From Candidatus Omnitrophota bacterium (GTDB lineage Bacteria; Omnitrophota; Gorgyraeia; Zapsychrales; Zapsychraceae), in the NCBI GenBank assembly GCA_021108075.1, contig JAIORP010000178.1, positions 31,811 through 95,810 on the forward strand: a stretch of DNA of 64,000 nucleotides, written 5' to 3'. Within the stretch, counting starts at the first letter, position 1; every line of letters begins with the position of its first letter. Below the pieces are notes generated by a model. The model ran no database searches. It was not told the DNA's origin and saw nothing but the letters and a program-made list of their open reading frames with translations. The translations under genes and the position numbers were made by a program. Shown piece by piece: positions 7,021 through 54,933 of this stretch.

Positions 7021-7127
7021 ATACCAAATCCATTAATTAATTGTTCTATTTCGATTCTGATATTCTCGCCTTAGCGTCAATAAATGCTGAATCGGGTTTG
7101 GTAATTATTTAACGTAATTGGTATAAG
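7021..7127 (+). repeat. Promoter/operator repeat element, copy A (diverged), upstream of the 7172 operon
   Basis: ATACCAAATCCATTAATTAATTGTTCTATTTCGATTCTGATATTCTCGCC ... GGTTTGGTAATTATTTAACGTAATTGGTATAAG is alignable to the copies at 28410, 54828 and 49112. Confidence 0.75.
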
Positions 7128-7171
7128 TTATGAATTGAAAGTTTAGAAGAGACAAATGTGGAGCCTTTAAA

Positions 7172-8176
7172 GTGAACGGGAAAAGATCTCAGAAAAAAGT
7201 TTTAGTAACAGGTGCTGACGGTTTTATCGGCAGTCATCTCGTTGAAGATCTGGTTGCTCAAGGCTTCAACGTAAAAGCCTTTGTCTATTACAACTCGTTT
7301 AACACCTGGGGCTGGTTGGATTCAATCCCTAAAGATATCCTTGAAGAAATTGATGTTTTTGCCGGTGATGTGCGTGATCCGAATGGGGTTAAAGAAGCGC
7401 TGAAGGGTTGTGACATGGTTTTTCATTTGGCCGCGTTAATCGGCATCCCTTTTTCCTATCATTCTCCGGACAGTTATGTTGACACAAACGTCAAGGGAAC
7501 CCTGAATATTTTGCAATCAGCCCGTGATTCGGGAACAAAAAGAATTTTGGTAACCTCGACATCTGAGGTGTATGGAACGGCACAATATGTTCCCATTGAT
7601 GAACAGCATCCACGGCAGGCACAATCGCCGTATTCAGCAACAAAGATTGCGGCTGACAGTCTGGCGGAATCTTTTTATCGCTCTTTTGATTTGCCGGTAA
7701 CGATCGTGCGCCCATTCAATACTTTTGGCCCCCGGCAATCCGCCCGGGCCATCATTCCGACGGTGATAACACAGGCCTTAACTGGAAAAAAAGAGATCAA
7801 GCTGGGTGATTTGCGTCCATCACGTGATCTGAATTATGTGCAGGATGTGTGTCAGGCCTTCATTCAAATCGCGAAATGTGAAGAAACCCGCGGAATGGAC
7901 TTGAATATTGCCAGGGGAGAAGATATAACGGTCGGTGATTTAGCCCAGGAAGTAATCAGATTGACCGGCTCCGGGGCAAAGATCGTCTGCGATCAGCAAC
8001 GCTTGCGGCCCGAACGCTCAGAAGTTATGCGGCTTTGCGGTGATAACAAGAAAATCAAAGAACTAACAGGATGGTCTCCGTCAACGTCTTTGCAGGAAGG
8101 TTTAAAGCAAACGATTGAGTGGTTTTCAGTAAAAGACAATCTGGATTTATATAAGGCGGATATTTACAATGTTTAA
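7172..8176 (+). CDS. NAD-dependent nucleotide-sugar epimerase/dehydratase (extended SDR)
   Basis: VLVTGADGFIGSHLVEDL Rossmann motif and catalytic YSATK; 334 aa; GTG start; preceded by a promoter-repeat copy. Confidence 0.75.
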   Translation: MNGKRSQKKVLVTGADGFIGSHLVEDLVAQGFNVKAFVYYNSFNTWGWLDSIPKDILEEIDVFAGDVRDPNGVKEALKGCDMVFHLAALIGIPFSYHSPDSYVDTNVKGTLNILQSARDSGTKRILVTSTSEVYGTAQYVPIDEQHPRQAQSPYSATKIAADSLAESFYRSFDLPVTIVRPFNTFGPRQSARAIIPTVITQALTGKKEIKLGDLRPSRDLNYVQDVCQAFIQIAKCEETRGMDLNIARGEDITVGDLAQEVIRLTGSGAKIVCDQQRLRPERSEVMRLCGDNKKIKELTGWSPSTSLQEGLKQTIEWFSVKDNLDLYKADIYNV

Positions 8177-13462: not shown

Positions 13463-13477
13463 AATGAATGGTCTCCA

Positions 13478-14329: not shown

Positions 14330-14344
14330 TCAAAGGAAGGGGAT

Positions 14345-16185: not shown

Positions 16186-16189
16186 AATT

Positions 16190-19683: not shown

Positions 19684-21484
19684 TCCAATGAACAAACAGA
19701 AGATTTTTTTAATATCTCCGATATCCTTCTTATCTAAAACATTTTATTCATTTCTTAAGAAGTTTAACTACGACGTTTACTGTAGAGGTCGATTTGATAA
19801 GGACGTTTTAAGTGATACGGCTAATGATCATTATGATCAAGCTAGCGACGCGTTTCGCGCGTTTACGGATGACCATATTCAGCAAGACAGAATTAAAGCT
19901 ATTGCCGAAAAATATGGCTTAGATCCAACCTGTTTAGGTAAATTTTCTCGAGATGTCATGATGAGTGTTTGGCACTTTGATTTTTGTTTTACGTTTACTG
20001 CTGTCAAGAAGTTTGCCTCTTCAAACGCGATTATCGGATTTGTCAGTTATCCTCCAACCTGGTGGAAGTCATTAGAAGATATCCTCGGATACAAAACAAA
20101 TATTTTTTTCTCTGCGATCTTAATGTTTGAAAGACGATGTCGTATCTTTGTCAAATCGACACTAAAAATGATTTTATTTAGCATAAAATTATTGTCTTGG
20201 CTTTTTTTAAGATCTAAAGAAAATTATGGATATTGGCAACAAAATTATATTTGGCTCTCAGGTGATAAGAAAAACGTTCTCACCCGGGATTCAAAGAAGA
20301 ATTCATTGCCCTGTTTCCTGTCACAATTAAGGGTTGAGGGGAAAATACAGCAAAAGTTCATAATCATTGCTCCCGCGTTAAAAAAAGATGAATGGTGGGA
20401 GGATGAGGATGTTGTTGCCAGAAGCAATGTTTGGGATTTCTTTCCTGATGTGTCTTTATCTGAAGTGGGGGGAATTCTTAAACAATTTTTTTATCTATAT
20501 ATTCATTTATTTTTTAATTTCTTTAGCTCTAAGCCGGATTTTGAAATATTAATTGCTCTTTTTGATTATATCTTTATTGGATTTGTACTTCAGAAGCTGG
20601 ATCCTAAAGCTGTTTTATATTCTCAATCGACTTTTGGCGCGGGCAATAGTTTTGTTTACGCGAGTGCAGAGAAAAAGATTAAATCATTTCTTATTTATTA
20701 TGGGGCTTCAAATTTCAGGCCCGCCGTTGAATCCAAAGTGACGTATCAATTATTCACTAGCGAGTGCCAAAACGTTATCGCGGATCACATTTTTGTTTGG
20801 AATGAGCATACGAGAAAGCATTTTGAATCGATTGGTCGAGAAAAAAATGTTCATATTGTTGGAACTCAAATATTTTCACCGTGTTATCCGTTAAATCATT
20901 TTAAACCTAATACCAGATTTACAATAGGTGTATTCTTCGGGGTGCCGTTTGCCAAAGAACACATTTACCGAATGGGCCTGGGCAACTATTTCCATGATGT
21001 TTCTTATTGCGCGGAGTTTTGGCGCAGCTTATTCTCTGTGGTATCGAAAGTCTATCAGGAACAATTCATGTTTTTGGTTAAATTAAAAATTCGGGGGAAT
21101 AATCAGAAGCACTATGATACCTGGTTTCGTTCGTTGAAAAAAGAATATCCTTTCTTTGATGACGTCGTTCAGATCTGTTCAGAGACTGAGAATTTATGGG
21201 ATCTTGTTCAACGCACGGATTGCTGCGTCTCAACAGCTTTAAGCTCTGCGGCATGTGTTCCGCTTGATTTTGGCATTCCTTCAATTCATTATGATCAGGC
21301 GGGCATCGTTAAACCGATTGATAATCTTGGCATTCCCTTACTTTGCGATGAAAATTTTTTGATTCAATGGTTTCGAGACCTTAGAAATGGGCGTATAAAA
21401 AAGTATAAGATTGATGGAAAAAAATTTGATCTAGGAGCCGTCTCATTAGCCCGAATGTTGAATTTAATCATGTCTGAAAGCTAA
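19658..21484 (+). CDS. Hypothetical protein, 608 aa; possible glycan-modifying transferase (Maf-like by size and context only)
   Basis: Long ORF in AT-rich DNA immediately after the ptm-like block; no motif I can name. Alternative start at 19688 (MNKQKIF). Confidence 0.4.
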   Translation: MMGAYQSGNPMNKQKIFLISPISFLSKTFYSFLKKFNYDVYCRGRFDKDVLSDTANDHYDQASDAFRAFTDDHIQQDRIKAIAEKYGLDPTCLGKFSRDVMMSVWHFDFCFTFTAVKKFASSNAIIGFVSYPPTWWKSLEDILGYKTNIFFSAILMFERRCRIFVKSTLKMILFSIKLLSWLFLRSKENYGYWQQNYIWLSGDKKNVLTRDSKKNSLPCFLSQLRVEGKIQQKFIIIAPALKKDEWWEDEDVVARSNVWDFFPDVSLSEVGGILKQFFYLYIHLFFNFFSSKPDFEILIALFDYIFIGFVLQKLDPKAVLYSQSTFGAGNSFVYASAEKKIKSFLIYYGASNFRPAVESKVTYQLFTSECQNVIADHIFVWNEHTRKHFESIGREKNVHIVGTQIFSPCYPLNHFKPNTRFTIGVFFGVPFAKEHIYRMGLGNYFHDVSYCAEFWRSLFSVVSKVYQEQFMFLVKLKIRGNNQKHYDTWFRSLKKEYPFFDDVVQICSETENLWDLVQRTDCCVSTALSSAACVPLDFGIPSIHYDQAGIVKPIDNLGIPLLCDENFLIQWFRDLRNGRIKKYKIDGKKFDLGAVSLARMLNLIMSES

Positions 21485-21661
21485 AAGCTGACTTTTGTAT
21501 TGGTATAAAAGGGTTCTTTATGCAATGCATTGACATTTGATCAGATTCTAATAGAATATATTAAATCTTATTAAATATAAATTTTTTATATAGTAATTCT
21601 TTTAATAATTATATTAATATACTACAATTTGTATAATTTTTAGCGAAAAAGGAGGCGTGCG

Positions 21662-22390
21662 ATGAGCGAAGATAAGATTTTTGCAGATGATAAAGAAAAA
21701 ATAAATGATTTTGAGTTTGGAGAAGAGACAGCCCAAGTATTTGATGACATGTTGGATCGCAGTGTTCCGCTTTATCGCGAATTACAACGCATGATCGGTG
21801 AAATCGCGAATGAATTTGCCCAATCGGATACGAATATTGTTGATTTGGGGTGTTCAACCGGTATCACGCTTTTAACATTAAATAAAATGGTAGAGAAGAA
21901 TGTGAAGTTGATAGGTGTCGATTATTCACAGGCTATGCTCGATAAATGTAAAAAGAATTTGATAAAGGGTCATGTTAAAAAAGAATATGAATTTTTATGC
22001 CGCGACCTGAATAATGGCTTGGTCATAAAGAATGCATCTGTCGTTGTTTTGAATTTAACCCTTCAATTTATTCGTCCGCTTCAAAGAGATCTGCTGATTC
22101 AACATATTTACAATGGTTTGGTTGATAACGGATGTTTAATTTTAGTTGAGAAAGTCTTGGGGAATGATTCGGTTTTTAATCGGACATTTATTCAATTTTA
22201 TTATGATATGAAACAACGGAATGGTTATTCGGAGTTGGAGATTGCCCAGAAGCGTGAAGCATTGGAAAATGTGCTAATACCGTATCGAATGAGTGAAAAT
22301 GATCAAATGTTGCATCGTAATGGGTTTAGATACATGGATATTTTTTATAAGTGGTACAATTTTTATGGTGTGATAGCAATGAAAATGTAA
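21662..22390 (+). CDS. CmoA-like carboxy-S-adenosyl-L-methionine synthase homolog (class I SAM MTase fold)
   Basis: Near-colinear similarity to E. coli CmoA blocks: FDDMLDRSVPLY, VDLGCSTGITLL, NASVVVLNLTLQFIRP, NGYSELEIAQKREALENVL; 242 aa; strong AAAGGAGG RBS upstream. Confidence 0.65.
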   Translation: MSEDKIFADDKEKINDFEFGEETAQVFDDMLDRSVPLYRELQRMIGEIANEFAQSDTNIVDLGCSTGITLLTLNKMVEKNVKLIGVDYSQAMLDKCKKNLIKGHVKKEYEFLCRDLNNGLVIKNASVVVLNLTLQFIRPLQRDLLIQHIYNGLVDNGCLILVEKVLGNDSVFNRTFIQFYYDMKQRNGYSELEIAQKREALENVLIPYRMSENDQMLHRNGFRYMDIFYKWYNFYGVIAMKM

Positions 22391-22399
22391 AGGAGATTT

Positions 22400-28373: not shown

Positions 28374-28409
28374 AGACATTCTATCAACTCTTTATGATCA
28401 TACCAAATC

Positions 28410-28506
28410 TATTAATAAATTGTTCTATATTAATTTTGATATTCTCGCTAAATCGTCGAGAAAAGCAGAATTGGTGTTGGTCATTATTTAATGGAATTGG
28501 TATAAT
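28410..28506 (+). repeat. Promoter/operator repeat element, copy B (near-consensus), upstream of the 28651 operon
   Basis: Contains the 5' end ATACCAAATCTATTAAT, dyad TTCTCG-N9-CGAGAA (28443..28462), TTGGTC (-35-like), an 18-bp spacer, and TGGTATAAT (28498..28506). Confidence 0.8.
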
Positions 28507-31934: not shown

Positions 31935-32030
31935 TAAATATGTTCAAACTTATCATTGAATAGTGATGTTGCTATTTGATCAGCGTTGGTATTTTAAAAG
32001 GTTAATCAGTGATATTGAGGCATGAAGTTT

Positions 32031-32064
32031 CCCCCTTATCTTGCTGCGGGGTGCGGGGTTCATT
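32031..32064. repeat. GC-rich hairpin motif (CCCCNTANCTTGCTGCGGGGTGCNGGGTTCATT family), copy 1, at the left boundary of the defense island
   Basis: CCCCCTTATCTTGCTGCGGGGTGCGGGGTTCATT is near-identical to 49353..49385. Confidence 0.7.
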
Positions 32065-32296
32065 CAAATCAATTCATGCACCGTTTTTATTCTGACAAGA
32101 GAAAGAAAAGAATAGTTGTCGTGCCACGCAAATGTGTGGTATAAAAGAGTTATCCCCTACACATAGTAATTCCCCGAATCACGTTTATTTAAACTTCAAA
32201 TCATTGTCCCGCATTAGAGAGGGAAAATTTGGACGTTAAAAAAGTAAAACCTTTGCTGGTAAATTATGGCGGGGTTTCTTTCATTTATATATAAGA

Positions 32297-34797: not shown

Positions 34798-34798
34798 T

Positions 34799-35263
34799 AT
34801 GAAAAGAAAAATTAAAAATAAGTTGGGGAGAAATTTTAATCGTGAACGGCAAAAAGATAAGATTACGACTGATAAACGTTCCTCTGTGATGTCAAAAATA
34901 CGATCACGGGGAACAAAGTTTGAGACGGATTTCATAGACGAACTTTCGAGAATGGTAAAAGAAAAATTTGAAACGCACGTTAAGGATATTAGGGGTAAAC
35001 CAGACATTGTGTTCCGCGGTAAAAAGGTTTGTGTTTTTTTGGACAGCAACTTCTGGCACGGTTGGCAGTATCCTCGTTGGAAGCATTTATTAAAGAATGA
35101 TTTTTGGCGAAATAAGATAGAAAAAAATAGACTACGAGATCGAAATACAACCCAGTATTTACGACGTGAGGGATGGGCGGTTATTAGGATTTGGGAACAC
35201 TCCATAAAGAATGATATAGGGGTAGCCTTGAGGAGAATAATGGATGGAGTTGCCAATGGGTAA
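34799..35263 (+). CDS. vsr: Very short patch repair endonuclease
   Basis: RGKPDIVFRGKKVCVFLDSNFWHGW and C-terminal GWAVIRIWEH match the Vsr signature (DxxFWHG ... W.VLR.WE); 154 aa. Confidence 0.85.
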   Translation: MKRKIKNKLGRNFNRERQKDKITTDKRSSVMSKIRSRGTKFETDFIDELSRMVKEKFETHVKDIRGKPDIVFRGKKVCVFLDSNFWHGWQYPRWKHLLKNDFWRNKIEKNRLRDRNTTQYLRREGWAVIRIWEHSIKNDIGVALRRIMDGVANG

Positions 35264-35416
35264 AGAAATTAATATAGATAGTTGATTATTGTAATTGGGC
35301 GATATTCCGTGAATGGGAAACTCAAGACATAAGATCTTATGAATTAATCAGGAAGGCTGTTAAGAGTGAATATAATATTTTTCGGAGTGGCGAGACTTTT
35401 TATTATTGATTATAAA

Positions 35417-35455
35417 TGATGACCGCCCTGACTACTCTTTCGAGAGAGCCTTCTG
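35417..35455. repeat. 39-bp direct repeat, left copy (TGATGACCGCCCTGACTACTCTTTCGAGAGAGCCTTCTG) flanking the TIR-NTPase gene
   Basis: Identical 39-mer found again at 38185..38223; read directly from the sequence. Confidence 0.9.
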
Positions 35456-35543
35456 TCAAAATAAAAGATGTCAGGTATTATATGTTGTTATTCCTGGATT
35501 TATTATTCATTATTTCAGGTGAGAAATTATAAAGGAGAAAACA

Positions 35544-38171
35544 TTGGATATGAAAAATTATGCATCAAAAATGTTTATTAGCTATTCTCATGAAGACGAA
35601 TTATATATGGTTGAATTAAGGAAGCACTTAATTCTCTTAGAAAAAAAAGGCATATTAAACCAATGGTGTGATAAGGAGTTGGTCGCTGGGGATGAATTAC
35701 AGCCCGAGATAATGAAACATTTAGAAGATGCAGATATTATAGCATTTTTAGTAAGTATTGACTTCCAGAGTTCGGATTTCTGTGTTCGAGTAGAATTAGC
35801 GAAGGCTTTGGAGAAGAAAAAGAATCAGGGTGCTGTTATTATTCCAATAATAGTTCGAACATGTAGATGGCAAGATAGTGTGCTTGGCCAATTTGTAGCA
35901 GCAACAAAAAACGGCAACCCTATTTCGGATTATGAGAATGCCGACAAAGCTTGGGTTGAGGTTAGCATGTCTATTGAAAAAGTTGTTGAAAAATTCAATA
36001 AACAAAGAATTGAAAATAAGCCTGAGGATCAAGGCAAAACATTTTTTTTGAAAGAAGAATTTTTAAATGAATTAAACAATACAGAAATAATATTTCAGCA
36101 TAAACATAAAGAGTTTGTAACTCTGGAGGATATATATGTTTTTCCTGATGTAAAAGATTTAAAGAAGGAATACGATAAAATAGAATTGTTGATAAATTCT
36201 GAGCATATTCTTTCATTTGAAGAAGAACAACACCAAGATAAAATATTAATATTAGGAACGGAACAAGCTGGTAAAACTTCTTTAGCGAAAATGATGTTAA
36301 AAATTAGTTTGAATGCTAGCTGGCTGCCTGTTTTTGTTAAAGGGACAGAAATTAAAAGCTCTGATACAAGTGATATGTTGATGAAGTTGATTCCTGAGCA
36401 ATATCAAAAATTGACAAGAGATGAATATTTTAATCAATCTAGAAAGAAAATTTTATTTGTAGATGATTATCATCAATCGAAGTTGAATTCTAAGTATAGA
36501 TTTAGATTTGTTGATTCAGTAGTGAAGCAGTTTGATAAAGTTATTTTGTTTTCTGATAGTATGATGAAGTTTGATGAAATTAATTATTCCCATTTTTCAG
36601 GCTTCTATCAATACGAAATATTGCCTTTGGGGCATGAGCGAAGAGGGGTATTGATTGATAAATGGAATAGCATGGGGCAATCTGAAACGATTGATATTAA
36701 TGCTCTTTATCAAAGAAATGATATTGCAACTATGCACTTGAACGCCATACTAAGGAAGAATGTTGTTCCATCAAAACCACTATATGTTCTGACAATTATA
36801 CAATTGTTAGATACATCAGTTCCATCCGACTATACTTTGACATCTTATGGACATTGTTATCAAACGTTAATTCAACAAGCATTGCAAAAGGTGAAGGTGA
36901 CCATTAAGGATTTTGAGTTATATATTAATTACTTGTCAGAACTAGCATATTATATATTTGAATCAGGTAAAGACATAATAAATGAAGATGCCTTGTTTGC
37001 TTTTCAGCATGAATATTCTAATAAATATATTTTGGATTCTCACAAGAATGTTTTAAGTGTTCTAACAAAAGCAGGCATTTTGAGAATTGGTGATTCAGGG
37101 AATTGTTTTTGTTATCGTTATATTTATTATTTTTACGTGGCAAAGTATATTGCAGACCATCTTCAGACAGCTGATTGTAAAAAGACTGTAGAATATCTTT
37201 GCAAACGGATGCACACGGAGAGAAACGCAAATATTTTAATATTTCTAACTCATCACAGTAAAAATCAGGAGATTTTAGATAAAATATATTCATATACCAC
37301 AGATATATTTAAAGGAATAAATCAGGCTAAGTTGGACTCAGAAGAAACTGATTATTTGGCGGAATTTATGGGAGCAATTCCTCAGTTAGTTATTGAGCAG
37401 AGAAATGCTGAAGAGGAAAGAAAGAAAAAAGTTATAAGAAAAGATAAGATTGAAAGAGATGAGCAGGGCGAAGAGAATGAAGCTGACGATTTGAACGAAA
37501 GTACTCTAGCCGAAATCAATAAATCTTATAGGGCTGTTGATATTATTGGACAAATATTGAGGAATCGGCAGAATTCCTTAACAAGAAAGCAATTGTATGA
37601 TTTGACTTCGTCAGCATTTTCTTCAGGATTAAGATTTCTGAAATTTTTTCTTAATTTAACAACAAAATCAAAAGATGAAATATTAAACGTTATTAAGCAT
37701 CTGATTGAAGAGGATTCCAAGGTGTCTGGAGATGAGATGCCAAAGAAACATAAAATATCCGATGAGGACATAACAAAAAAAGCAAAAAGAATATTTCTAA
37801 TGATAAGTTATGGGATGTCATACTCGGTGATTAAGAAAATAGCTAATTCTACTGGGTCAAAAGAACTTATGCCAATCCTTAATAAAATTGATGAAGACAA
37901 TCCTGGTTCACCCGCTATTAAGCTAATTCAAATAGCAGCTCACCTTGAATTTGCAAAAACTATACCTGAAAAAGAAATACTTGCGTTGGATAAGACTTTA
38001 GAGAAAAATTTAATTGCTAAAAGGTTGTTGCAAGAAATAATTGTTCAATATTTATATTTACATAATGTTGACTACAAAAAAAGACAATGGATAGCTAGTA
38101 AATTAAAAATACCTTTAAGTTTTCAGCGAGAACTTCAACACGAAAAAGCTACAAAGGTGTTGGCTAAGTAG
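35544..38171 (+). CDS. TIR-domain + P-loop NTPase (STAND-like) protein with long alpha-helical C-terminal region; candidate antiphage defense protein
   Basis: N-terminus KMFISYSHEDE ... ADIIAFLVS ... RVELAKAL fits a bacterial TIR domain. Walker A LGTEQAGKTS and Walker B ILFVDDYHQ follow. 875 aa; conspicuously AT-rich codon usage. Confidence 0.75.
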   Translation: MDMKNYASKMFISYSHEDELYMVELRKHLILLEKKGILNQWCDKELVAGDELQPEIMKHLEDADIIAFLVSIDFQSSDFCVRVELAKALEKKKNQGAVIIPIIVRTCRWQDSVLGQFVAATKNGNPISDYENADKAWVEVSMSIEKVVEKFNKQRIENKPEDQGKTFFLKEEFLNELNNTEIIFQHKHKEFVTLEDIYVFPDVKDLKKEYDKIELLINSEHILSFEEEQHQDKILILGTEQAGKTSLAKMMLKISLNASWLPVFVKGTEIKSSDTSDMLMKLIPEQYQKLTRDEYFNQSRKKILFVDDYHQSKLNSKYRFRFVDSVVKQFDKVILFSDSMMKFDEINYSHFSGFYQYEILPLGHERRGVLIDKWNSMGQSETIDINALYQRNDIATMHLNAILRKNVVPSKPLYVLTIIQLLDTSVPSDYTLTSYGHCYQTLIQQALQKVKVTIKDFELYINYLSELAYYIFESGKDIINEDALFAFQHEYSNKYILDSHKNVLSVLTKAGILRIGDSGNCFCYRYIYYFYVAKYIADHLQTADCKKTVEYLCKRMHTERNANILIFLTHHSKNQEILDKIYSYTTDIFKGINQAKLDSEETDYLAEFMGAIPQLVIEQRNAEEERKKKVIRKDKIERDEQGEENEADDLNESTLAEINKSYRAVDIIGQILRNRQNSLTRKQLYDLTSSAFSSGLRFLKFFLNLTTKSKDEILNVIKHLIEEDSKVSGDEMPKKHKISDEDITKKAKRIFLMISYGMSYSVIKKIANSTGSKELMPILNKIDEDNPGSPAIKLIQIAAHLEFAKTIPEKEILALDKTLEKNLIAKRLLQEIIVQYLYLHNVDYKKRQWIASKLKIPLSFQRELQHEKATKVLAK

Positions 38172-38184
38172 AATTCAGAATAAC

Positions 38185-38223
38185 TGATGACCGCCCTGAC
38201 TACTCTTTCGAGAGAGCCTTCTG
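38185..38223. repeat. 39-bp direct repeat, right copy, followed by an inverted-repeat stem (CCGCCCTG ... CAGGGCGG) and a T-run
   Basis: Identical to 35417..35455. The downstream GGGCTCTTATTATCAGGGCGGAACCTTTTTT can pair with the CCGCCCTGA inside the repeat. Confidence 0.9.
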
Positions 38224-39459: not shown

Positions 39460-39462
39460 GGG

Positions 39463-40044: not shown

Positions 40045-41861
40045 TATCAATTATATTTATAAACAAGGCAAATCGGTTGAAGGCTGTTCTGGACGCCTGT
40101 TCGGATTCAACATGCGCCGTGCTGCGGGTGTTGTATAACCAACAGACGCCCGTGATACTGAACAAGCTAAGGGAACGCGGGGTTAAATATAAACAGATCA
40201 AAGGCCGGGATTATATCGCGCGGTATCAAAATAGTTATTCGCGATTCATAGGAGCTCTGAACATGAAATACGCGGGGCTTCATTGGTGGGCCCTGGACCT
40301 GACCAATAAAAATCCGATTACAACCCGTTTATTTGACGCGGTTTATTGCACCCTCTTAATTGAGAAGCTTGTTGAAAAAGGGGAATTTCAGACGATTGTC
40401 GTTATCAGTGAGGACAAAGACTGTTGTCGGCAGATACAGAGAAATCACGCGGAAAGTGTGAATGTCCATGTTCAAGATTTGACCGTGACCTTCCCGGTGA
40501 AAAAGTTTCTTCAACGGATATTCCCTTTAGGCCCCGTGTATAAGTTTTTATGGGCTTTAACAGGAAAATGTTGGGCCGCGTTGAATCTTCCCGCCCAAAA
40601 AAATTGGGAGAAAGCACCCACGCATTTTATTATGTCTTTGCTTTATGATCCCTGTTTTAAGACCGGCGAATATCAGGATGTCTACTTTGGCCCGTTTGTT
40701 GAATTCATGGCTGAGCGGAATATTCCGTTTGTCAATGTGATGGAGGTCTGCGCCCCGTATCATAAGATGATGAAACAGACCAAACAGAAAGCAAAACGTT
40801 TTGCCGTCTATCCGAAAGAATCGTTTTTATCCGTGAAGCACATGTTCATGAGCCTGATAGCCGCCCTCAAAGCTTTTTATCGCCCGGTCCGTTTGGACGC
40901 CCCGTGCGAGATCGATGGTGTTTGTTGTCAGTATCTCCTCAGACGATATATGCGTTATGAATATGTTTCAACCCGTTATTGTTCCAATCTGCTCATGTTT
41001 TACGCGTTTACCGATATTGCCCGGCAGTTTCCCGGTTGCACCATTTATTATCCTTTTGAAAACCGGTCGTTTGAAAAGATGATCATCAGCGCCGTCCGGC
41101 AGCATCCGTCGCGGATAAAATTAATCGCGTATCAACATGCCTCGGCAACGCTGCGTCATACGAATTTTTTGTTGGCGCAGGGAGAAGAAAAAATATTACC
41201 GCTACCGGACCGCGTTTACACTTTGGGAAGCATTACCCGGAATTTTATCATTGAGCAGGGCGGCTTTCCGCGGGAACTGTTTGTTGAGGGATGTGCTCTG
41301 CGGCAAAAACCTTATACCGGTGCGATCAAAAAGAAGTCCCCGGGCGTGAAGAAATTGCTGGTTGCCTTAGCGACCAACATTGAAGAATATGTCAAAGCTT
41401 TGTTATTTCTGTCTGAAGCGTTTGAATCCGGACAGGGTGAGTATGAGGTCTGGATCCGGCCGCATCCGGTTTTTCCGCTTGAAGACGCCCTGGCGATCAC
41501 GGGCCCGTTATCATTTCATTTTCATCAAGCGGATCAAGAGACCTTACCCGCATCCTTTCAATGGGCGGATATTCTTCTTTTTGTTCATTCTATGGTCGCG
41601 ATTGAAGGTTTGATGTATGGACTGCCGTGCCTGCGCCTCGTGGTGGATAACCCGGTTGATCCTGATCCATTGTTAGGGTGGACAGATTTTAAATGGGATG
41701 TCGCGCGACCGAAGAATTTGATAAAAACTATTGCGTCGATAGAGGCTCTTAGTGATAATGATTTCTATTCCAGGCAGAAAAAAGGCTGTTGTTTTCCTCA
41801 GGAATACATGCGGCCGGTTACAAAGGCGTTTTTAAACACACTTTTATACCAATTCCATTAA
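40041..41861 (+). CDS. Hypothetical protein, 606 aa; possible glycosyl/nonulosonyl transferase, about the same size as 19658..21484
   Basis: Long ORF with ATGA overlap to the acetyltransferase; no recognisable catalytic motif. Confidence 0.4.
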   Translation: MISIIFINKANRLKAVLDACSDSTCAVLRVLYNQQTPVILNKLRERGVKYKQIKGRDYIARYQNSYSRFIGALNMKYAGLHWWALDLTNKNPITTRLFDAVYCTLLIEKLVEKGEFQTIVVISEDKDCCRQIQRNHAESVNVHVQDLTVTFPVKKFLQRIFPLGPVYKFLWALTGKCWAALNLPAQKNWEKAPTHFIMSLLYDPCFKTGEYQDVYFGPFVEFMAERNIPFVNVMEVCAPYHKMMKQTKQKAKRFAVYPKESFLSVKHMFMSLIAALKAFYRPVRLDAPCEIDGVCCQYLLRRYMRYEYVSTRYCSNLLMFYAFTDIARQFPGCTIYYPFENRSFEKMIISAVRQHPSRIKLIAYQHASATLRHTNFLLAQGEEKILPLPDRVYTLGSITRNFIIEQGGFPRELFVEGCALRQKPYTGAIKKKSPGVKKLLVALATNIEEYVKALLFLSEAFESGQGEYEVWIRPHPVFPLEDALAITGPLSFHFHQADQETLPASFQWADILLFVHSMVAIEGLMYGLPCLRLVVDNPVDPDPLLGWTDFKWDVARPKNLIKTIASIEALSDNDFYSRQKKGCCFPQEYMRPVTKAFLNTLLYQFH

Positions 41862-41924
41862 AGAATTGTACAAATAACGAGAGCAAATCCAATAAATGTG
41901 CGCCACGATAATTCTTCTGACTTC

Positions 41925-42000
41925 TCATCGCTATTCGCGTAAAAGCGTTCGCGAAATACGATGAGAATTTTTGGCAATTATTTTATGGATTTGGTATTAA
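41925..42000 (+). repeat. Diverged partial copy of the promoter/operator element upstream of the radical SAM operon
   Basis: TTCGCG-N10-CGCGAA dyad followed by TTGGCAATTATTTTATGGATTTGGTATTAA, alignable to the 3' half of the consensus. Confidence 0.55.
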
Positions 42001-42009
42001 CAGGAAGCC

Positions 42010-44036: not shown

Positions 44037-44045
44037 CCGTCATTT

Positions 44046-45470: not shown

Positions 45471-45473
45471 GAT

Positions 45474-46640
45474 ATGAGAATATTAATTGTTCATAATCAA
45501 TACACTGAGCCCGGAGGAGAAGATAAGATTGTTGAGGCGGAACAATCTTTGTTGACTTCTCATGGGCATGATGTTGAGCTTTATCTCCGTTCAAATAACG
45601 AACTGAAGCGGAAGAGTATATTCAGAAAACTCAAATTTGTCTATCTAGAGGTGTTTTCCTCCAAGAAAACGTATTACGATGTATTAGATATGATTAATGC
45701 GTTTGGACCGGACATTGTTCATGTCCATAATATTTTTTTGATGATATCCCCCGCCATTTATGATGTTTGTTTTCAAAAAAAAATCCCTGTCGTGCAAACA
45801 ATTCACAACTACCGTTTTTTTTGCAGCAATGGTTTATTTTTTCGGGAGGGGCGGGTGTGTGAAGACTGTATCTCAAAAGGACCAATTTCTGCTATCACTT
45901 ATCGCTGTTGGCGCAGGTCCATGCTGGCGTCAGGATTGATGACAAAAGTACAGGATAAACTTCATCGAGAATATTTAAATAGTGATAAAATATCGCGCTA
46001 TATCGCTCCTTCGGAATTTACCCGCAAGAAATGCGTTGAATGTGGATTGCCCGAAGATAAGATCGCCGTGAAACCGCATTTTTCACCGGATAAACCGTTT
46101 GAAAATAAGAGCCCCGGGGAATATGTCGCGTTCGTCGGGCGACTTATTGATTACAAGGGGATTATCCTGCTGCTGGAATGTTTTAAAGACTTAAAGGATA
46201 TTCCTTTAAAGATCATTGGTGACGGGCCGTTACATGCTGATGTTGAGCGCGTGGCCGCGGACAATCCACAGATTTCCTTTCTAGGTTACCGGTCGTCCGA
46301 ACAGGTTGGTGAACTATTGTCCAAAGCCGCTTATATTGTTTGTCCGTCTCCTTGTTATGAAACGTTTGGCCGGGTTGTCGTCGAAGCGTTTAGCCAGGGA
46401 ACACCCGCGCTCGTATCAAGAGGCGGGGCGTTAGAAGAGCTGATAACAGATCCTTGTCTCGGTGTTATTGCCGAAGACAATCAACCTCAATATTTCAGAT
46501 CTGCGGCAAAGGATTTGTGGCTGAACGTGCAAAGGGGCGGGGTCGATTTTCAAAAGATCAGGGATATCTATGACCGTCGATATACAGCAGATATTAATTA
46601 TAAGATGATGATGTCCATTTATACCAGTTCCATTAAATAA
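45474..46640 (+). CDS. Family 4 (GT-B, retaining) glycosyltransferase
   Basis: C-terminal E-x7-E region CPSPCYETFGRVVVEAFSQGTPAL; 388 aa. Confidence 0.75.
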   Translation: MRILIVHNQYTEPGGEDKIVEAEQSLLTSHGHDVELYLRSNNELKRKSIFRKLKFVYLEVFSSKKTYYDVLDMINAFGPDIVHVHNIFLMISPAIYDVCFQKKIPVVQTIHNYRFFCSNGLFFREGRVCEDCISKGPISAITYRCWRRSMLASGLMTKVQDKLHREYLNSDKISRYIAPSEFTRKKCVECGLPEDKIAVKPHFSPDKPFENKSPGEYVAFVGRLIDYKGIILLLECFKDLKDIPLKIIGDGPLHADVERVAADNPQISFLGYRSSEQVGELLSKAAYIVCPSPCYETFGRVVVEAFSQGTPALVSRGGALEELITDPCLGVIAEDNQPQYFRSAAKDLWLNVQRGGVDFQKIRDIYDRRYTADINYKMMMSIYTSSIK

Positions 46641-46712
46641 TGACCAAAACCAATTCTGCTGTTCAGAATTAAGATAGAACAATTTATTAATGGATTTGGT
46701 ATTACCAGAACG
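46641..46712 (-). repeat. Promoter/operator repeat element, inverted (minus-orientation) copy, upstream of the 46743 gene
   Basis: The reverse complement of 46641..46706 reads ATACCAAATCCATTAATAAATTGTTCTATCTTAATTCTGAACAGCAGAATTGGTTTTGGTCA. Confidence 0.75.
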
Positions 46713-46742
46713 TTATGAATAAAAAAATATCGCAATAATATT

Positions 46743-48188
46743 ATGACGCGTAATCAATCAAAAAAAATTTTAACCACCTGGTGTTTAATTTTTCTTTGTT
46801 GCTTTTTTTATTGGGGGTACTTATTTTTTGCTTCATCGTTTGATATTGCCCATGACGCGGTCGGGTATCAAAACCTGGGGAAGATGGTCCATCAAAAAGG
46901 CTGGAAAGAATATTTCATCACCGGACCTAACAGGGAGCCGGTCTATATCGCGACAATAGCGTTATCGATGAAGTTGGGTGAAATGTTTTCTCTGAATTAT
47001 CAATATTTTCAGAAATTGACACAGGTTTTATGTCTTTTTATCAGCCAATTGATGGTTTTGGTTCTTCTGCGGCGTTTACAGATAAGGCGGGGAGTGCAGA
47101 TGCTTGTTATTTTTTATATGGGTTTTTCACCCGCGTTGGTGAATGCCGCGTTCAGCTTGTACTCGGAAATAGCCGCGTTGCCGTTTGTTCCATTGCTGTT
47201 AGTATGTTGTTTGATGTCTTTTCAAAGGATCTTTTCAAGCGAGAATAAGAATCCTGTGTCATTTGGGATTTACACGGCTTTCGTTTTTATGGCCGCGACT
47301 CTTTGCAAAGGCATTTTTCATTATGTTTTTCTGACATTGGCCGGAATATTGGGGATGGCGGTTTTGTTTGCGTTATACAAAAAGAGGAAATCGCTTTTGG
47401 TCTCCATTATACTGTTTTTGTGTCCGCTGGTCATGATCTATTCTTTAGGGATCGGTGGTTTTATGGCGTTGAACAAACACTATAATGGTCATTTTGAGAT
47501 AACAAACCGTTATGCCGGGGCGTTATTCGGAGTGGCCTATAAAAGGACAAATCCCGTGACCTCACGTATTGTGATGTCGCATGTTGCCGCAATTCCCGGC
47601 TGGGGTGTGTGCCGGATGTTTTTTACGGAGGAAGAGTGCCGGTATACCGAGTTTTATGCGAGTGATATGTATTATATGGGACCGACATTAACCAATCAAT
47701 TGAAAGATCTCCCGGAAGAAGAACATTATACGGCAACGATTCAGTTTGCTTTTGATAGAATAAAACAACATCCGTTCCGTTATACTATGTTTTGTTTGAT
47801 TGAGGCGCCCAAGATGTTTTTCTGGGAGTCGACACGCATTGGTTTTGTGAACTATCCGCAATGGTTGCATCAGTTGTTTGTGTTTAAGCCGGTCAGGTTA
47901 GGCGTCAGACTGCTTATGTCGTTGCTGACGATGATCGCGCTGGGATATCTTTTGTTGCTGTCGATTAAAAGAAGATCTATGCTGGTTGGTCCAACCCAGG
48001 GCTTAAATATGGACCAGCAAAGATTACAGACCAGCTTGATGATTTTACTTATTGTGTTTTTTTTCACAGGGTTGTATTCTTTATTTTTAATCCTGACAAG
48101 ATACGCCTTGCCGGTCGCGCCGTTATATCTCATCGCGATTGCCATATTTGTGGATGAAATGTGCCCTAAGCCGAAAAGAATCGTTTGA
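46743..48188 (+). CDS. Polytopic membrane protein, possible GT-C-fold glycosyltransferase (ArnT/PMT-like)
   Basis: 481 aa with many hydrophobic segments; preceded by an inverted copy of the promoter-repeat element. Confidence 0.45.
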   Translation: MTRNQSKKILTTWCLIFLCCFFYWGYLFFASSFDIAHDAVGYQNLGKMVHQKGWKEYFITGPNREPVYIATIALSMKLGEMFSLNYQYFQKLTQVLCLFISQLMVLVLLRRLQIRRGVQMLVIFYMGFSPALVNAAFSLYSEIAALPFVPLLLVCCLMSFQRIFSSENKNPVSFGIYTAFVFMAATLCKGIFHYVFLTLAGILGMAVLFALYKKRKSLLVSIILFLCPLVMIYSLGIGGFMALNKHYNGHFEITNRYAGALFGVAYKRTNPVTSRIVMSHVAAIPGWGVCRMFFTEEECRYTEFYASDMYYMGPTLTNQLKDLPEEEHYTATIQFAFDRIKQHPFRYTMFCLIEAPKMFFWESTRIGFVNYPQWLHQLFVFKPVRLGVRLLMSLLTMIALGYLLLLSIKRRSMLVGPTQGLNMDQQRLQTSLMILLIVFFFTGLYSLFLILTRYALPVAPLYLIAIAIFVDEMCPKPKRIV

Positions 48189-48389
48189 TGAAACACACTG
48201 TTAAAAATCAGGTAACGATACAGGTCTCACCCGGTCCAAAGATCCGGAAAACGCTCATTGACAAAAATTGTATTTATTTTTTGACGATACGAGAAAATAA
48301 TGTTTAAGTATTATTCATGAAAGAGACAACATCAGAAGAAGCCCGCGTGAATTAATCTTTATTTATGAACGATTCGATCAGGCCTGGGC

Positions 48390-48910
48390 CAATCATATGG
48401 TTGATTGTCAGGTCAAAATCAAAAATAAAGTCGATACGGCCAAAGCTAACGGTTTAGATCAACTCAGTCAAGGACAACAAAATTATTGACACAAGCAATA
48501 TCGGGAAATTATTACTGAAGGTCATCAGGCCAATCCGTGGAGGATCCTCCTGACACACAGCGTAAGCGCGGTCGTCCGTAAAAAGGAAAAACACGATGTT
48601 TGCTTGAGCGTTTGGATGGTCATTGGCGCAAGGTATTACGCTTCATGTATGATTTTCGTATTCCTTTTGACAACAACTTATCCGAGCGGGATGTACGCAT
48701 GATGAAAGTCCGTCAGAAAATTTCAGGAACATTCCATCCGCCGGATATGGCCTCAATCTTCCGCGAGATGCGCCGTTTTATCTCAACGGTTCGTAAGCAG
48801 TGAATCCCTCTTCTGCATGCCATCGACCTGATCTTCACGGGCCAACCGTTAAAGCTGTTCGTTCACCAAATTATCGGTGAGCGCCTGTCGAGCTTTTGGG
48901 CCGGGTGAGA
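48390..48910 (+). pseudogene. IS66-family transposase (TnpC) C-terminal remnant, frameshifted
   Basis: Pieces in different frames: QYREIITEGHQANP, PPDTQRKRGRPKKGK, LERLDGHWRKVLRFMYDFRIPFDNNLSERDVRMMKVRQKISGTFH, then ...LHAIDLIFTGQP. Together they match the conserved C-terminus of IS66 transposases. There is no intact ORF or N-terminal part. Confidence 0.55.
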
Positions 48911-49111
48911 CCGGAATAGTTACATATAAAGAAAGTCTTCCCGATCATGCATCCTGAAACCACCTTTGCCAGAAAGTGTGTCGACTTGTATTCAGATAGC
49001 TGCAAAAAATAGTTGAAGGGAATGATCGGGACGAAGAAGGCTGTTTTTTAGATTAACGTTTATTTTATATTTATTACAGGAGTTTATTTGTGCTGGCGAA
49101 TCATCGTGTTT

Positions 49112-49190
49112 ATACCAAATCCATTAATAAATTGCTCTATCTTAATTCTGAAAAGCAGAATTTGTTTTGGTCATTATTTAATCGAAAGAA
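49112..49190 (+). repeat. Promoter/operator repeat element, internally deleted/interrupted copy in the IS-remnant region
   Basis: ATACCAAATCCATTAATAAATTGCTCTATCTTAATTCTGAAAAGCAGAATTTGTTTTGGTCATTATTTAAT. The dyad segment is missing. The 3' end, TCATTGGAATTGGTATTATT, is displaced to 49381..49400. Confidence 0.65.
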
Positions 49191-49352
49191 TTCCCCTGAG
49201 CTTGCTCCGGGGTTGCCGCCTGAAGGAAGAGTTCGAGAAAACATGGGTTTCTCGAATACAGAATTCCATCGTAGCATGGATTCGACCGTCGCAAATTTTC
49301 TCGAGGGTAAACAAAGGGTTTACTCAAATCGAGCTATAGCCGTAATAGGATA

Positions 49353-49385
49353 CCCCGTAGCTTGCTGCGGGGTGCTGGGTTCATT
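49353..49385. repeat. GC-rich hairpin motif, copy 2 (a partial third copy lies at 49194..49220)
   Basis: CCCCGTAGCTTGCTGCGGGGTGCTGGGTTCATT; CCCCG/CGGGG forms a 5-bp stem around a 10-nt loop. Confidence 0.7.
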
Positions 49386-49749
49386 GGAATTGGTATTATT
49401 AGAAGATTTCAGGGGTAGCCCACATCCCGACAATTTTGCTTCTGGTTGGCTATGTGTTTTTCTGGATAGAACTTTTTTTCCTGGAGCATCCGACCGGACA
49501 TACGACCTGAATGGCTTGGGTCGTTCTTGCGCTAAGCATTATTATTATTTGTGTAAATAACGCAAAAGACATCAGGGATTTGGCCTATCAAAGCCGGTTC
49601 CTCCACAAAATATCCGCTCGACATTTGTTATCAAGCAGGCGGATTCCTCCCAATAATATTAATAAATATTTTATAAATAATTGTGTGCTGTTTGGTCGAT
49701 ATTCTTTATAATTAATAACGTACGACAATAAATAAGATAAGGATACAAT

Positions 49750-50454: not shown

Positions 50455-50530
50455 TTCAGTGACTTCTGATAATCTGCTGGTTCTGTGATAACACGTTTCA
50501 GGAGTGCCGTTAAATAAAAGATGATGCTAA

Positions 50531-51307: not shown

Positions 51308-51317
51308 AGAGGGATAA

Positions 51318-52751: not shown

Positions 52752-52967
52752 ACCCGCACGCTTTTCTTCCGCGCGAGTGTTTCGGTTTCATGAGCGTGTT
52801 GACGTGAGGGACGGCAGAGGGTTCCGTGTTATTCCTATTAAAAAAATTAAAATATTCCCGGTGTATCTGTTGAGAAAACATTTGCGCTAAGCAGGGATGC
52901 CCGATAGAGACTGTAAATTTTATCAAATAAGATCTTGCCTGACAGCAGGGTTTAGAAGGGACCTTGA

Positions 52968-54317
52968 ATGGAAATAAAAGATAAATTTGTTTGCATATGC
53001 GATAGAGTTCTGGCATTTAGTTTTTATGTCATGGTGTTCTTTCTTTCAACGGCACCGGCGATCATTGAAAGCTTTTTTGCCGTGATGATGTTTGGTTACG
53101 TGTTTAAGAGGTCGCGTTTATCTTACCTTCAAGGCAGGCGGGACACAAAATCCGGCCAGATAAAAGTGGCTGAAAAATTGAAACGTTTTTTCACCGCGTA
53201 TAAACCGATAGACAATGCCTTAAATGTGCCGATCGCTATCTTTGTCTTGCTTTCGATTCTGTCGATCGTTTTTAATCCCTATTGGGGTTTGGGCTGGAAG
53301 GGTTTTTTTTGTAAATTGTGGGAAAGTTTATTTATTTATTTTATATTTATTGAGACGATGAGGACCCGGGACCGGCAGATGAAGTTTTTATTGGTGAGCC
53401 TTTTTTCTTTGTTTTTTACTTTGGTTAATGGGGTCTATCAGTACATCACCCGGGAAGGATTTATGCTGCATACCCCGATCACCGACGGCAGGGTGACATC
53501 AGCGTTTAGTCATTCAAACGACTTTGGGGCGTATTTGGTCACTTATATTCCATTGTTATTATGTTTATCACTGCGTTTACGTTTGAGTCCGGCAAAACAC
53601 AATCAACCGCATAGCGCTATCGAGCGGTTTATCGATGGCATGCCGTTTCGAGTTCTCTCCTTTTTTGTGTTTATTGTTGCGGTCATTATCCTTGGTCTGA
53701 CCTATTCGAGAAGCGCGTGGATCGCTTTTTTTGTCGCTTTTTTATTTATTGGAGCCAGCCGCCCTAAAATTTTATTGATTGTCTTTTTGATGATTGTCAT
53801 TTTTTTATCGGTCTTTATTCCCAGGATGTTAATAGAAAGACAATCCAATTTTGCCGGCCGACGGTTTATCGACGCGTTCACGTCTTCATCCCGATTGATT
53901 TATTGGGATGAAGCCATTAGGATCGTTCGGGATTATCCTCTTTTGGGTGTTGGACTCAACGCCTATTCAAAGGTTGGGCCTGCGTACAAGACAAATTTAC
54001 ACGGCAGTGGTGGCTACCCGCATAATTGTTATTTACAAACGGCTGCTGAAATCGGAATTTTAGGGTGTTTGGTCTTTCTATGGATGATGTGGCGGCTTAT
54101 AAAGAGCAGTATCCGTTTTATTCGTAACAGCAACCATTTGACCGATGCCAACCTTCAACTGGGTATTATCGCGGGATTAATTGGGCTGTGGGTGCATAGT
54201 TTTTTTGATACAAGTTTTTATAATATTAAACTGAATTCCTTGATGTGGCTGATGATGGGGTTTGCGATAGCGGTTCAAAAACTTCATACTGAGGCCCACA
54301 ATGTTGAATCTCAATGA
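52968..54317 (+). CDS. O-antigen ligase / polymerase family membrane protein (Wzy_C)
   Basis: Multi-TM; LTYSRSAWIAF motif typical of the Wzy_C domain; 449 aa. Confidence 0.6.
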   Translation: MEIKDKFVCICDRVLAFSFYVMVFFLSTAPAIIESFFAVMMFGYVFKRSRLSYLQGRRDTKSGQIKVAEKLKRFFTAYKPIDNALNVPIAIFVLLSILSIVFNPYWGLGWKGFFCKLWESLFIYFIFIETMRTRDRQMKFLLVSLFSLFFTLVNGVYQYITREGFMLHTPITDGRVTSAFSHSNDFGAYLVTYIPLLLCLSLRLRLSPAKHNQPHSAIERFIDGMPFRVLSFFVFIVAVIILGLTYSRSAWIAFFVAFLFIGASRPKILLIVFLMIVIFLSVFIPRMLIERQSNFAGRRFIDAFTSSSRLIYWDEAIRIVRDYPLLGVGLNAYSKVGPAYKTNLHGSGGYPHNCYLQTAAEIGILGCLVFLWMMWRLIKSSIRFIRNSNHLTDANLQLGIIAGLIGLWVHSFFDTSFYNIKLNSLMWLMMGFAIAVQKLHTEAHNVESQ

Positions 54318-54847
54318 AGAACGTTAAAAAATTGATCATTGGAAGTGCGGGAAAGAAACATCCCGATGCGATAACCCTCGACATCGATCCTGAACATCAT
54401 CCGGATGTGGTCCACAATATTGAGACCTCTCCGTGGCCTTTTGAGGATAATGCTTTTCAAAAGATTGTGGCGCATCATATCCTGGAACATGTGTCTCAAT
54501 TAAGTGTGGTCATGTCCGAAATGCATCGCGTTTGCGCGCAAGATGGAGAGATCCATATTGAGGTTCCGCACCACACTTCTTGGATGGCCTATGATCCAGC
54601 TCATTTGACTTATTTTAATTATTTTTCGTTGGATAGCTATTTGCATAATAAAGATACTTGGGTGCACGGCCGAAAGTTTGCCTGTCTGAATCAAGAGCTG
54701 ACTTTTCATCGTTTTTTCCGGTCTTGCGGATTGCAAAAAATATTTAACCGTTGGCCGTTAATGTATGAGCGCTTTTTTTGCTATCGTTGCCCTGCCGAAC
54801 ACATCAAGTTTGTCCTGCGACCACATCATACCAAATCCATTAATTAA
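54314..54847 (+). CDS. Small SAM-dependent methyltransferase-fold protein
   Basis: 177 aa; acidic SAM-pocket-like LDIDPEHHPDVVHNI ... HHILEHV; its stop codon lies inside the repeat element. Confidence 0.45.
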   Translation: MKNVKKLIIGSAGKKHPDAITLDIDPEHHPDVVHNIETSPWPFEDNAFQKIVAHHILEHVSQLSVVMSEMHRVCAQDGEIHIEVPHHTSWMAYDPAHLTYFNYFSLDSYLHNKDTWVHGRKFACLNQELTFHRFFRSCGLQKIFNRWPLMYERFFCYRCPAEHIKFVLRPHHTKSIN

Positions 54848-54933
54848 ATGTTCTATTTTAGTTTTTATATTCTCGCTAAAGCGTCGAGAAAAGCAGAATT
54901 GGTTTTGGTCATTATTTAATGGAATTGGTATCA
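54828..54933 (+). repeat. Promoter/operator repeat element, copy D (near-consensus), overlapping the stop codon of the 54314..54847 CDS
   Basis: ATACCAAATCCATTAATTAAATGTTCTATTTTAGTTTTTATATTCTCGCTAAAGCGTCGAGAAAAGCAGAATTGGTTTTGGTCATTATTTAATGGAATTGGTATCAG, with dyad TTCTCG (54870..54875) / CGAGAA (54885..54890). Confidence 0.8.

Follow-up and report, generated by a model that had tools for sequence, protein, structure and literature searches.

The window analyzed here is a 64,000-nt stretch of contig JAIORP010000178.1 (positions 31,811 to 95,810), assigned to a Candidatus Omnitrophota bacterium. All genes in it lie on the plus strand, and they include a long array of glycan genes whose boundaries carry a family of repeats of about 100 bp. 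An earlier interpretation made from the letters alone, below called the sequence-only reading, had seen in this family a mobile or duplicated promoter-operator cassette coordinating the glycan operons. Our analysis indicates that the repeats are very probably copies of a miniature inverted-repeat transposable element (MITE), non-autonomous and with IS630-type ends, that is, ordinary mobile DNA and not a dedicated promoter-operator system of the glycan genes.

A repeat search recovered a 107-nt family at 7018-7124, 28397-28503, and 54825-54931 (79-93% identity), together with an 80-nt inverted pair at 46628-46707 and 49107-49186 (93% complementary). The terminal motif ATACCAAWTCCATTAA, with at most three mismatches, occurs 15 times against 3.6 expected, a count that none of 100 shuffled sequences matched, and when a profile of the long copies was run against the window, it recovered six elements and no more (E-values 1e-28 to 1e-9). 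The repeat family of the sequence-only reading is thus real and far above chance. The six copies, numbered c1 to c6 along the window, are given below with their flanking target-site duplications (TSDs).

Copy c1 occupies 7019-7126 on the plus strand (element 7022-7123; TAA at 7019-7021 and 7124-7126; profile E-value 8e-25) between an ABC-transporter gene (stop at 6958) and a gene of the NAD-dependent epimerase/dehydratase family (start at 7172). It is a long form with a degenerate central hairpin. Copy c2, also long and on the plus strand, spans 28398-28505 (element 28401-28502; E-value 1.8e-26); its flanks, TCA and TAA, differ by one mismatch, and its central hairpin TTCTCG-N9-CGAGAA is perfect. 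The same perfect hairpin is present in the third long form, c6, at 54826-54933 of the plus strand (element 54829-54930; TCA/TCA; E-value 7.5e-28). Copies c2 and c6 are direct repeats, 93% identical and 26 kb apart. Copy c3, at 41844-41999 on the plus strand (element 41847-41996; TTA/TTA), measures 150 bp and is complete; in this variant the central palindrome is expanded, and an inner terminal repeat, degenerate in sequence, lies at 41880-41895. The left terminus of c3 (41846) falls within the end of the upstream open reading frame (ORF). Copy c4, at 46619-46704 on the minus strand (element 46622-46701; TTA/TTA), is an inverted 80-bp short form that lacks the central hairpin. Copy c5, at 49110-49398 on the plus strand (element 49113-49395; TTA/TTA), is another short form, 93% complementary to c4, and is split by a nested insertion of 203 bp, so that the element proper comprises 49113-49182 and 49386-49395.

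In this copy list the repeats reported earlier are retained, whereas the boundaries of three of them had to be redrawn. Copy c3, described as partial at 41925-42000, is complete; c4 had been placed at 46641-46712; and the 3' terminus of c5, thought to end at 49190, lies beyond the nested insertion. An inverted orientation of c3 was considered and dropped, since the plus orientation scores 37.3 bits in the profile against 19.3. Two promoter-like 3' ends, supposed to occur alone at 21495 and 31983, share only the heptamer TTGGTAT with the family and were not recovered by the profile. This heptamer is found three times outside the elements, while about ten occurrences are expected across the whole window. 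Thus, both sites were rejected as chance 7-mers.

The elements are 80-150 bp long in the window and have no coding capacity. Their terminal inverted repeats of 16-21 bp, with termini TACCAAWTCCATTAA and TTAATGGAWTTGGTA, bear out the MITE-like ends suspected in the sequence-only reading. Every copy folds back as one long hairpin made of the 16-21-bp terminal stem, an inner stem, and an apical hairpin. For the window copies, predicted folding energies lie between -20 and -39 kcal/mol and z-scores between -2.1 and -6.1; the most extreme z-score, -8.9, belongs to a copy from a metagenome-assembled genome (MAG). At the apex, c4 and c5, the short forms, are about 22 nt shorter, and c3 carries its expanded palindrome.

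The exact ends of the element follow from its flanks. Across 30 complete copies, taken from the window and from genomes related to it, T and then W precede ATACC, and W and then A follow GGTAT, the A being present in 30 of 30. When flanking trinucleotides are read with the outer A of ATACC and the outer T of GGTAT included, the same TNA is found on both sides in 24 of 31 complete copies, compared with a permutation mean of 11.2 (p ~1e-5). Most of these trinucleotides are TAA or TTA, and the identical pairs also include the rarer TCA/TCA. In the window, five of the six copies have identical flanks. Because the trinucleotides match on the two sides, it is statistically supported that the element proper is TACCAA...TTGGTA flanked by a 3-bp TNA duplication. 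The TSDs that the sequence-only reading had proposed to look for are therefore present, and its ATACC...GGTAT ends are real as repeat ends, except that the outer A and T belong to the duplication. TA alone is excluded as the duplicated unit, the middle base being variable (TAA, TTA, TCA, TGA).

The termini also connect the family to known insertion sequences. We scanned one genome per species for the terminal 20-mer. Among the matches listed, which come from many lineages and to which the following statements on its occurrence refer, the termini pair into elements of two kinds, MITE-sized elements and elements of 1092-1096 bp. The MITEs with these termini are 83, 104-107, 141, 160-162, 175, 182-183, or 243 bp long and occur in Bdellovibrionota, a Planctomycetales MAG, an Omnitrophota MAG, Alteromonadales, and Synechococcales; the same 20-nt repeat thus bounds MITEs with unrelated interiors in several phyla. 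The 1092-1096-bp elements, with the same termini of about 20 nt, come from Vibrio sp. HN007 and Psychromonas sp. PT13. In the Psychromonas element, 1096 bp long, two overlapping ORFs carry the Pfam domains HTH_33/HTH_32/HTH_29 and DDE_3; homologues of this transposase encoded by the Vibrio elements are 59-72% identical to it, and related DNA copies on plasmids are annotated as "IS630 family transposase."

Like the window copies, the full-length elements have TACCAAT termini and TNA duplications. The duplicated trinucleotide is TAA in Psychromonas, TGA in Vibrio (TTA at an outer pair), and TTA in an element on a Photobacterium toruni plasmid. An element on the Enterobacter roggenkampii plasmid pN260-3 (locus L114, 733-1836) likewise has TACCAAT termini between TTA and TTA. 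Thus, the TACCAAT start and TNA flanks are common to the window elements and all four sources, and for Psychromonas and Vibrio the first ~20 nt of the terminal repeat are identical to those in the window. The similarity stops there: the autonomous IS630 elements are about 1.1 kb long and encode a transposase, whereas the window elements are non-coding and have no internal sequence in common with them. Judged by sequence, the window termini (TACCAAWTCCATTAAWTAA) are the same as those of an IS630-family insertion-sequence clade. The recurrence of these termini across phyla suggests either that the parent clade spread horizontally or that MAG contigs were mis-binned.

Two individual IS630-family copies deserve a comment. 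The pN260-3 element lies between aac(6')-Il and blaIMP-1, apparently within an integron cassette array. In Psychromonas sp. PT13 (locus L043, 900-970), one copy is inserted in the terminal region of another, directly after TTA (CAAATTA followed by TACCAATTCCG). The position of the nested copy is consistent with a TNA target; its far junction is outside the sequence examined.

Among the matches listed, full-length similarity to the window elements (82-86%) was found in the Planctomycetales MAG CAZIRV01 and, more distantly, in the Omnitrophota MAG JAJDCA01. More than 40 copies lie beside unrelated genes in the loci examined from the Planctomycetales MAG, with up to five per 8 kb (locus L045), some of them back-to-back. 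In two such arrays (L015, 2059-2354; L065, 1156-1364) neighboring copies are only 2-4 nt apart, and at least two subfamilies can be distinguished in this MAG, one with AATAATGACCAAAA ends and the other with AATAAGTACTCATTT ends. Neighbors of the copies in the Planctomycetales MAG include genes for NAD synthase, type III glutamine synthetase, an ammonium transporter, an ANTAR regulator, LysR, GcvT/GcvP, an IF-2B-family protein, and alanine racemase. On JGI metagenome contigs, the copies adjoin genes for GH65, cytochrome bd, a secretin, a type II secretion ATPase, Lnt, and a histidine kinase, as well as one Bac_transf/PEP-CTERM pair; where these contigs overlap the Planctomycetales MAG loci, they are 99.9-100% identical to them and represent the same strain. 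In the Omnitrophota MAG, the neighbors are genes for a radical SAM/B12 protein, an Amt-histidine kinase, a PAS kinase, and MsrAB. Because copies in related genomes adjoin mutually unrelated genes, the family is not glycan-specific, and the confinement to glycan loci that the sequence-only reading had proposed to check does not hold in these genomes, where copies stand beside housekeeping genes.

We also searched JGI metagenomes with two shorter probes. A window-specific 29-mer gave no match there, and a broader 27-mer matched only the population contigs of the Planctomycetales MAG and one marine-sediment contig. The OppC protein of the window organism is 75% identical to that of the Planctomycetales MAG. 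From the window organism itself, whose 146-kb contig in ENA/NCBI is ERZ26872899 NODE_8, we read about 80 kb, that is, the window with 7.2 kb to its left and 8.7 kb to its right. The left extension still consists of glycan genes, and no further copies were found in either extension.

The assignment to IS630-related MITEs is based on the following features. The elements are small and have no transposase gene, they possess terminal inverted repeats and TSDs, their copies are dispersed in unrelated contexts, and the terminal repeats match an IS630-family insertion sequence. The surroundings are typical of mobile DNA, with an insertion nested in c5, an IS66 remnant beside it, and breaks of short-read contigs within c1 and c6. 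We infer the mobility of the copies from the TSDs, the nested insertions, and the back-to-back copies. The mobile-element part of the sequence-only reading is supported.

Several observations speak against this assignment. IS630-related MITEs are reported to use a TA target and to duplicate it (PMC2229807, PMC6267812), and here the duplication is TNA; this difference leaves the match of the termini and the transposase type unaffected. Moreover, a 2-bp duplication (TN or NA) is possible, because T and A never vary. Searches with tblastn found no transposase homologues in the window, in the ~16 kb of further sequence, or in the Planctomycetales and Omnitrophota loci examined; among all loci examined, homologues were found only in gammaproteobacterial ones. 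Look-ups of the exact proteins encoded by flanking genes yielded no empty sites or presence-absence polymorphism, every population contig either carrying the element or breaking inside it. Finally, all six copies are located in the glycan region, which makes up ~78% of the ~80 kb read. Since such a distribution has a chance expectation of ~22%, a local glycan bias is neither shown nor excluded by this count.

The distribution also bears on the proposal that the dyad TTCTCG-N9-CGAGAA is an operator bound by a dimeric regulator of the whole locus. The dyad is a perfect 6-N9-6 repeat in c2 and c6, and CTCG-N9/10-CGAG is conserved in relatives from two MAGs. However, it is perfect in only these two of the six copies: c1 has a degenerate version, c4 and c5 lack it, and c3 has a larger palindrome in its place. 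Its center also coincides exactly with the symmetry axis of the element; since the element folds back as one palindrome over its whole length, the dyad is simply the apex. The same hairpin occurs beside nitrogen-metabolism, secretion, and respiration genes in other genomes, and an operator function in the glycan locus is scarcely credible.

The positions of the copies relative to genes are informative as well. Three of them provide the stop codon of the upstream gene, the element terminus containing stop codons in two frames. Copy c3 terminates a 606-aa ORF (stop codon 41859-41861) and ends 13 nt before the ATG at 42010; c4 terminates the gene of a GT4 glycosyltransferase (46638-46640); and c6 terminates a methyltransferase ORF (54845-54847). 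We excised these copies in silico by removing the element with one copy of the TSD. Without c3, the upstream ORF and the downstream ATG overlap by 17 nt; without c4, 4 nt separate the end of the upstream ORF from the downstream ATG; and without c6, the upstream ORF gains 13 codons. Excision thus restores an overlapping junction at c3 and an adjacent one at c4, and hence these two copies entered tight operon-internal junctions. All three copies replaced the last few codons of the upstream gene, and in this way MITE copies explain why three upstream genes of the locus end in element-encoded tails.

Copy c6 lies where the glycan locus ends on its 3' side, and pgk follows ~450 nt further downstream. 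The pgk gene has its own perfect sigma-70 consensus, TTGACA-16-TATAAT, at 55289-55316, ~360 nt downstream of c6. This promoter lies ~70 nt upstream of pgk in a very AT-rich spacer. The statement that the elements stand before at least six operons is therefore not upheld, c3 and c4 being operon-internal and c6 being placed at the end of the locus, upstream of a promoter that belongs to pgk.

These positions matter for a second regulatory proposal, according to which each copy is an outward sigma-70 promoter with a TGn extended -10 box that drives the downstream gene and modularises the glycan locus. The 3' consensus of the family, TGGTCA, 17 nt, and TG-G-TA followed by TWA and N, resembles such a promoter, and the near-symmetric ends of the element produce a similar box in both orientations. 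Promoters within MITEs are known (Correia, MITEAba12, QMITE1; PMC10969869), and at the tight junctions interrupted by c3 and c4 a new promoter could offset polarity. However, the "-10" is composed of two element bases, three duplicated bases, and one flank base, and the box TGGTATWAN arises automatically where the element end GGTA meets the duplicated TWA. The final base is contributed at random by the flank and is T in 9 of 30 copies. Accordingly, the TGGTATAAT boxes ascribed to the copies are limited to c2, the last bases coming from the flank. The claim of an extended -10 promoter at every copy fares no better. Only c2 passes the sigma-70 consensus scan (TGGTCA-17-TATAAT with an upstream TG, 10 of 12 matches), c1 and c3-c6 fail it, and promoter-like sites are not enriched over shuffled sequences.

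Individual copies raise further difficulties for a promoter at every element. In c5, the 203-bp insertion parts the putative -35 box from the putative -10 box. At c3, transcription starting 6-9 nt past the box would begin on the AGGAAG ribosome-binding site or past it, leaving 2-5 nt to the ATG, and pgk, downstream of c6, has the promoter described above. The conserved end bases would be sufficiently explained by transposase recognition, because they are common to the ends of IS630-family elements. As a general property of the copies, promoter function is therefore unlikely. Outward promoter activity at favorable flanks, notably those of c2, is nevertheless plausible, because outward MITE promoters are documented for Correia and other elements. 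Any copy that did prove to be an active promoter would add a further case of MITE-driven operon rewiring, like that by Correia elements. With relatives beside housekeeping genes, a perfect dyad in two of six copies, and one of six passing the promoter scan, a promoter-operator cassette that coordinates the glycan operons is unsupported.

Another potential function of the copies is at the level of RNA. Here the long stem, co-transcribed with its neighbors, would be a cis-acting element of processing, stability, or decoupling; this would be a secondary effect of the MITE and not an alternative origin. The predicted folds are stable, and c3 and c4, being inside tight junctions, have to be transcribed if they do not terminate or re-initiate transcription. 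In some copies, two-sided changes (A-U to C-G, CC/GG to AC/GU) keep the terminal stem paired, and there are precedents in Correia elements, which are processed by RNase III, and in ERIC-like MITEs (PMC2229807, PMC10969869). On the other hand, in an alignment of 26 copies the observed covariation score was matched by 10 of 500 shuffles, and double-change pairs were not above shuffles. Matched changes of the termini are equally expected from amplified master copies of subfamilies. We therefore rejected covariation as evidence of a selected RNA structure, the signal being weak and indistinguishable from an inherited palindrome.

We also searched for known RNA elements. A scan of the whole window with Rfam 15 at gathering score gave no match, E-value searches around c2, around c5, and in 31900-32320 gave nothing but a chance-level match near c2 (E 3.5), and a tRNA/tmRNA scan found no genes. 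No copy has a hairpin followed by a T-run, and intrinsic termination, for which the transcript would need a U-tract, was discarded. On balance, an RNA-level role of the hairpins is possible although somewhat doubtful.

Dispersed repeats of 80-104 bp with 79-93% identity could also serve as recombination substrates and drive deletion, duplication, or inversion of glycan modules, with variation of surface glycans as a result. Two pairs are suitable. Copies c4 and c5 are 2399 nt apart and enclose the ORF 46743-48188 and the IS66 remnant, and c2 and c6 form the long-distance direct repeat described above. From its sequence, the c4-c5 segment (46619-49398) could be invertible or composite-transposon-like; the enclosed ORF encodes 481 aa and has no Pfam match. 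However, no contig of the population shows an alternative arrangement, and each copy has its own matching TSD, as is the case for independent insertions without later mutual recombination. Such a role of the copies is improbable.

Several of these ideas can be joined in one scenario. In it, insertions would build a TGn-extended -10 box (GGTA with TWA) behind a TGGTCA -35 box and thus act as portable promoters or insulators that split a giant glycan operon. The 2.4-kb segment between c4 and c5 would be invertible and yield phase-variable surface glycans. Separately, the clade would form an IS630 subgroup that duplicates TNA in place of TA and has spread with its MITEs over at least five phyla. 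As a whole, this scenario seems quite unlikely.

For the IS630-related MITE that we favor, the following course of events can be proposed. An IS630-family transposase supplied in trans would bind the terminal repeats, and the element would then be moved by cut-and-paste. Several copies are in fact located at AT-rich gene boundaries of the long co-directional glycan gene array. Within operons the copies would be co-transcribed as RNA hairpins, and at favorable flanks, as at c2, an end may add a weak outward promoter. No dedicated role in the regulation of glycan synthesis would be involved.

The closest known kinds of element are other IS630-related MITEs, RUP and MITEPlu5/ERIC. RUP of Streptococcus pneumoniae is 107 bp long, is linked to IS630-Spn1, and has a TA target (PMC2229807). 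Like RUP, the window elements are about 107 bp long, non-coding, and intergenic, and their ends match an IS630-family insertion sequence presumed to mobilise them in trans; both kinds are also inserted in or beside other mobile elements (PMC2229807, PMC10969869). They differ in the target, TA for RUP and TNA for the window family, and the comparison is one of description. The window family, moreover, comes from uncultured genomes of the Planctomycetales and Omnitrophota types and has terminus relatives in several phyla. MITEPlu5/ERIC elements are linked to IS630-type insertion sequences, have a TA duplication, and form a very strong hairpin (PMC6267812). MITEPlu5, ERIC, MITEEc1, and MITEYpe1 resemble the window family in size (~120 bp), strong predicted hairpin, abundance, and IS630-subtype termini, and are sometimes read through as pseudo-coding frames (PMC6267812). 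In contrast to the TACCAAT termini and TNA duplication found here, they have "CCC" termini and duplicate TA.

For the promoter idea, the best functional analogy is provided by the Correia elements (CREE/NEMIS) of Neisseria. These MITEs of ~100-155 bp are also located at gene boundaries, their inverted-repeat ends and duplicated target create outward sigma-70-like -10 boxes, and their transcripts form hairpins (PMC2229807, PMC10969869). Promoter activity, IHF binding, and RNase III cleavage have been shown experimentally for Correia, whereas the window family is known from sequence; the sequences of the two are unrelated, and Correia has no known autonomous partner. An example of a MITE inserted in an operon without destroying it is provided by Chunjie of Geobacter uraniireducens, which also has intergenic copies of variable size (PMC10969869, citing Chen et al. 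2008). Chunjie is larger (178-235 bp) and lies in a phosphate-uptake operon, and it is likened to the window family by description only.

The terminal sequence of the element was not found in the literature searched. The MITE family is previously undescribed and comes from poorly studied uncultured lineages, represented by MAGs of the Planctomycetales and Omnitrophota types. Its copies should be masked or annotated as mobile DNA rather than as regulatory sites, and their presence accounts for the breaks of short-read contigs within c1 and c6. The family is tied to a clade of the IS630 family whose termini recur on MITEs of several phyla, and with its 3-bp TNA duplication it deviates slightly, in a way that can be tested, from the TA rule of IS630/Tc1-mariner elements.

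Other mobile DNA in the window is clustered around c5. The nested insertion in the 3' terminal repeat of c5 (49183-49385, plus strand; 203 bp) is GC-richer, and a pair of similar hairpins, CCCCTGAGCTTGCTCCGGGG and CCCCGTAGCTTGCTGCGGGG, marks its two ends. The final 33 nt of the insertion, comprising the CCCCGTAGCTTGCTGCGGGG hairpin and a tail, recur with 91% identity at 32032-32064, in a long intergenic region. The insertion has no Rfam match and a fold z-score of -2.6; it could represent another small element of mobile or REP-like (repetitive extragenic palindrome) type. Upstream of c5, imperfect inverted repeats of 53 nt (72% complementary) bound broken reading frames in the segment 48212-48923, and a 67-aa piece of it (48600-48803) matches the C-terminal part of the Pfam family DDE_Tnp_IS66 (E 2.7e-11). 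The segment is a decayed remnant of the IS66 family. Together with c5 and the 203-bp insertion, it identifies the gap at 48.2-49.7 kb as a pile-up of mobile DNA.

The glycan locus is also heterogeneous in composition. A 51-nt direct repeat (92% identical; 35405-35455 and 38173-38223) brackets an 875-aa ORF at 35544-38171, which lies in the part of the window with the lowest GC content (~31% against 42% overall). Islands of low GC content within the locus are found at 20000-22000 (35%) and 34000-38000 (31-36%), which suggests a mosaic, horizontally acquired make-up of the glycan locus.

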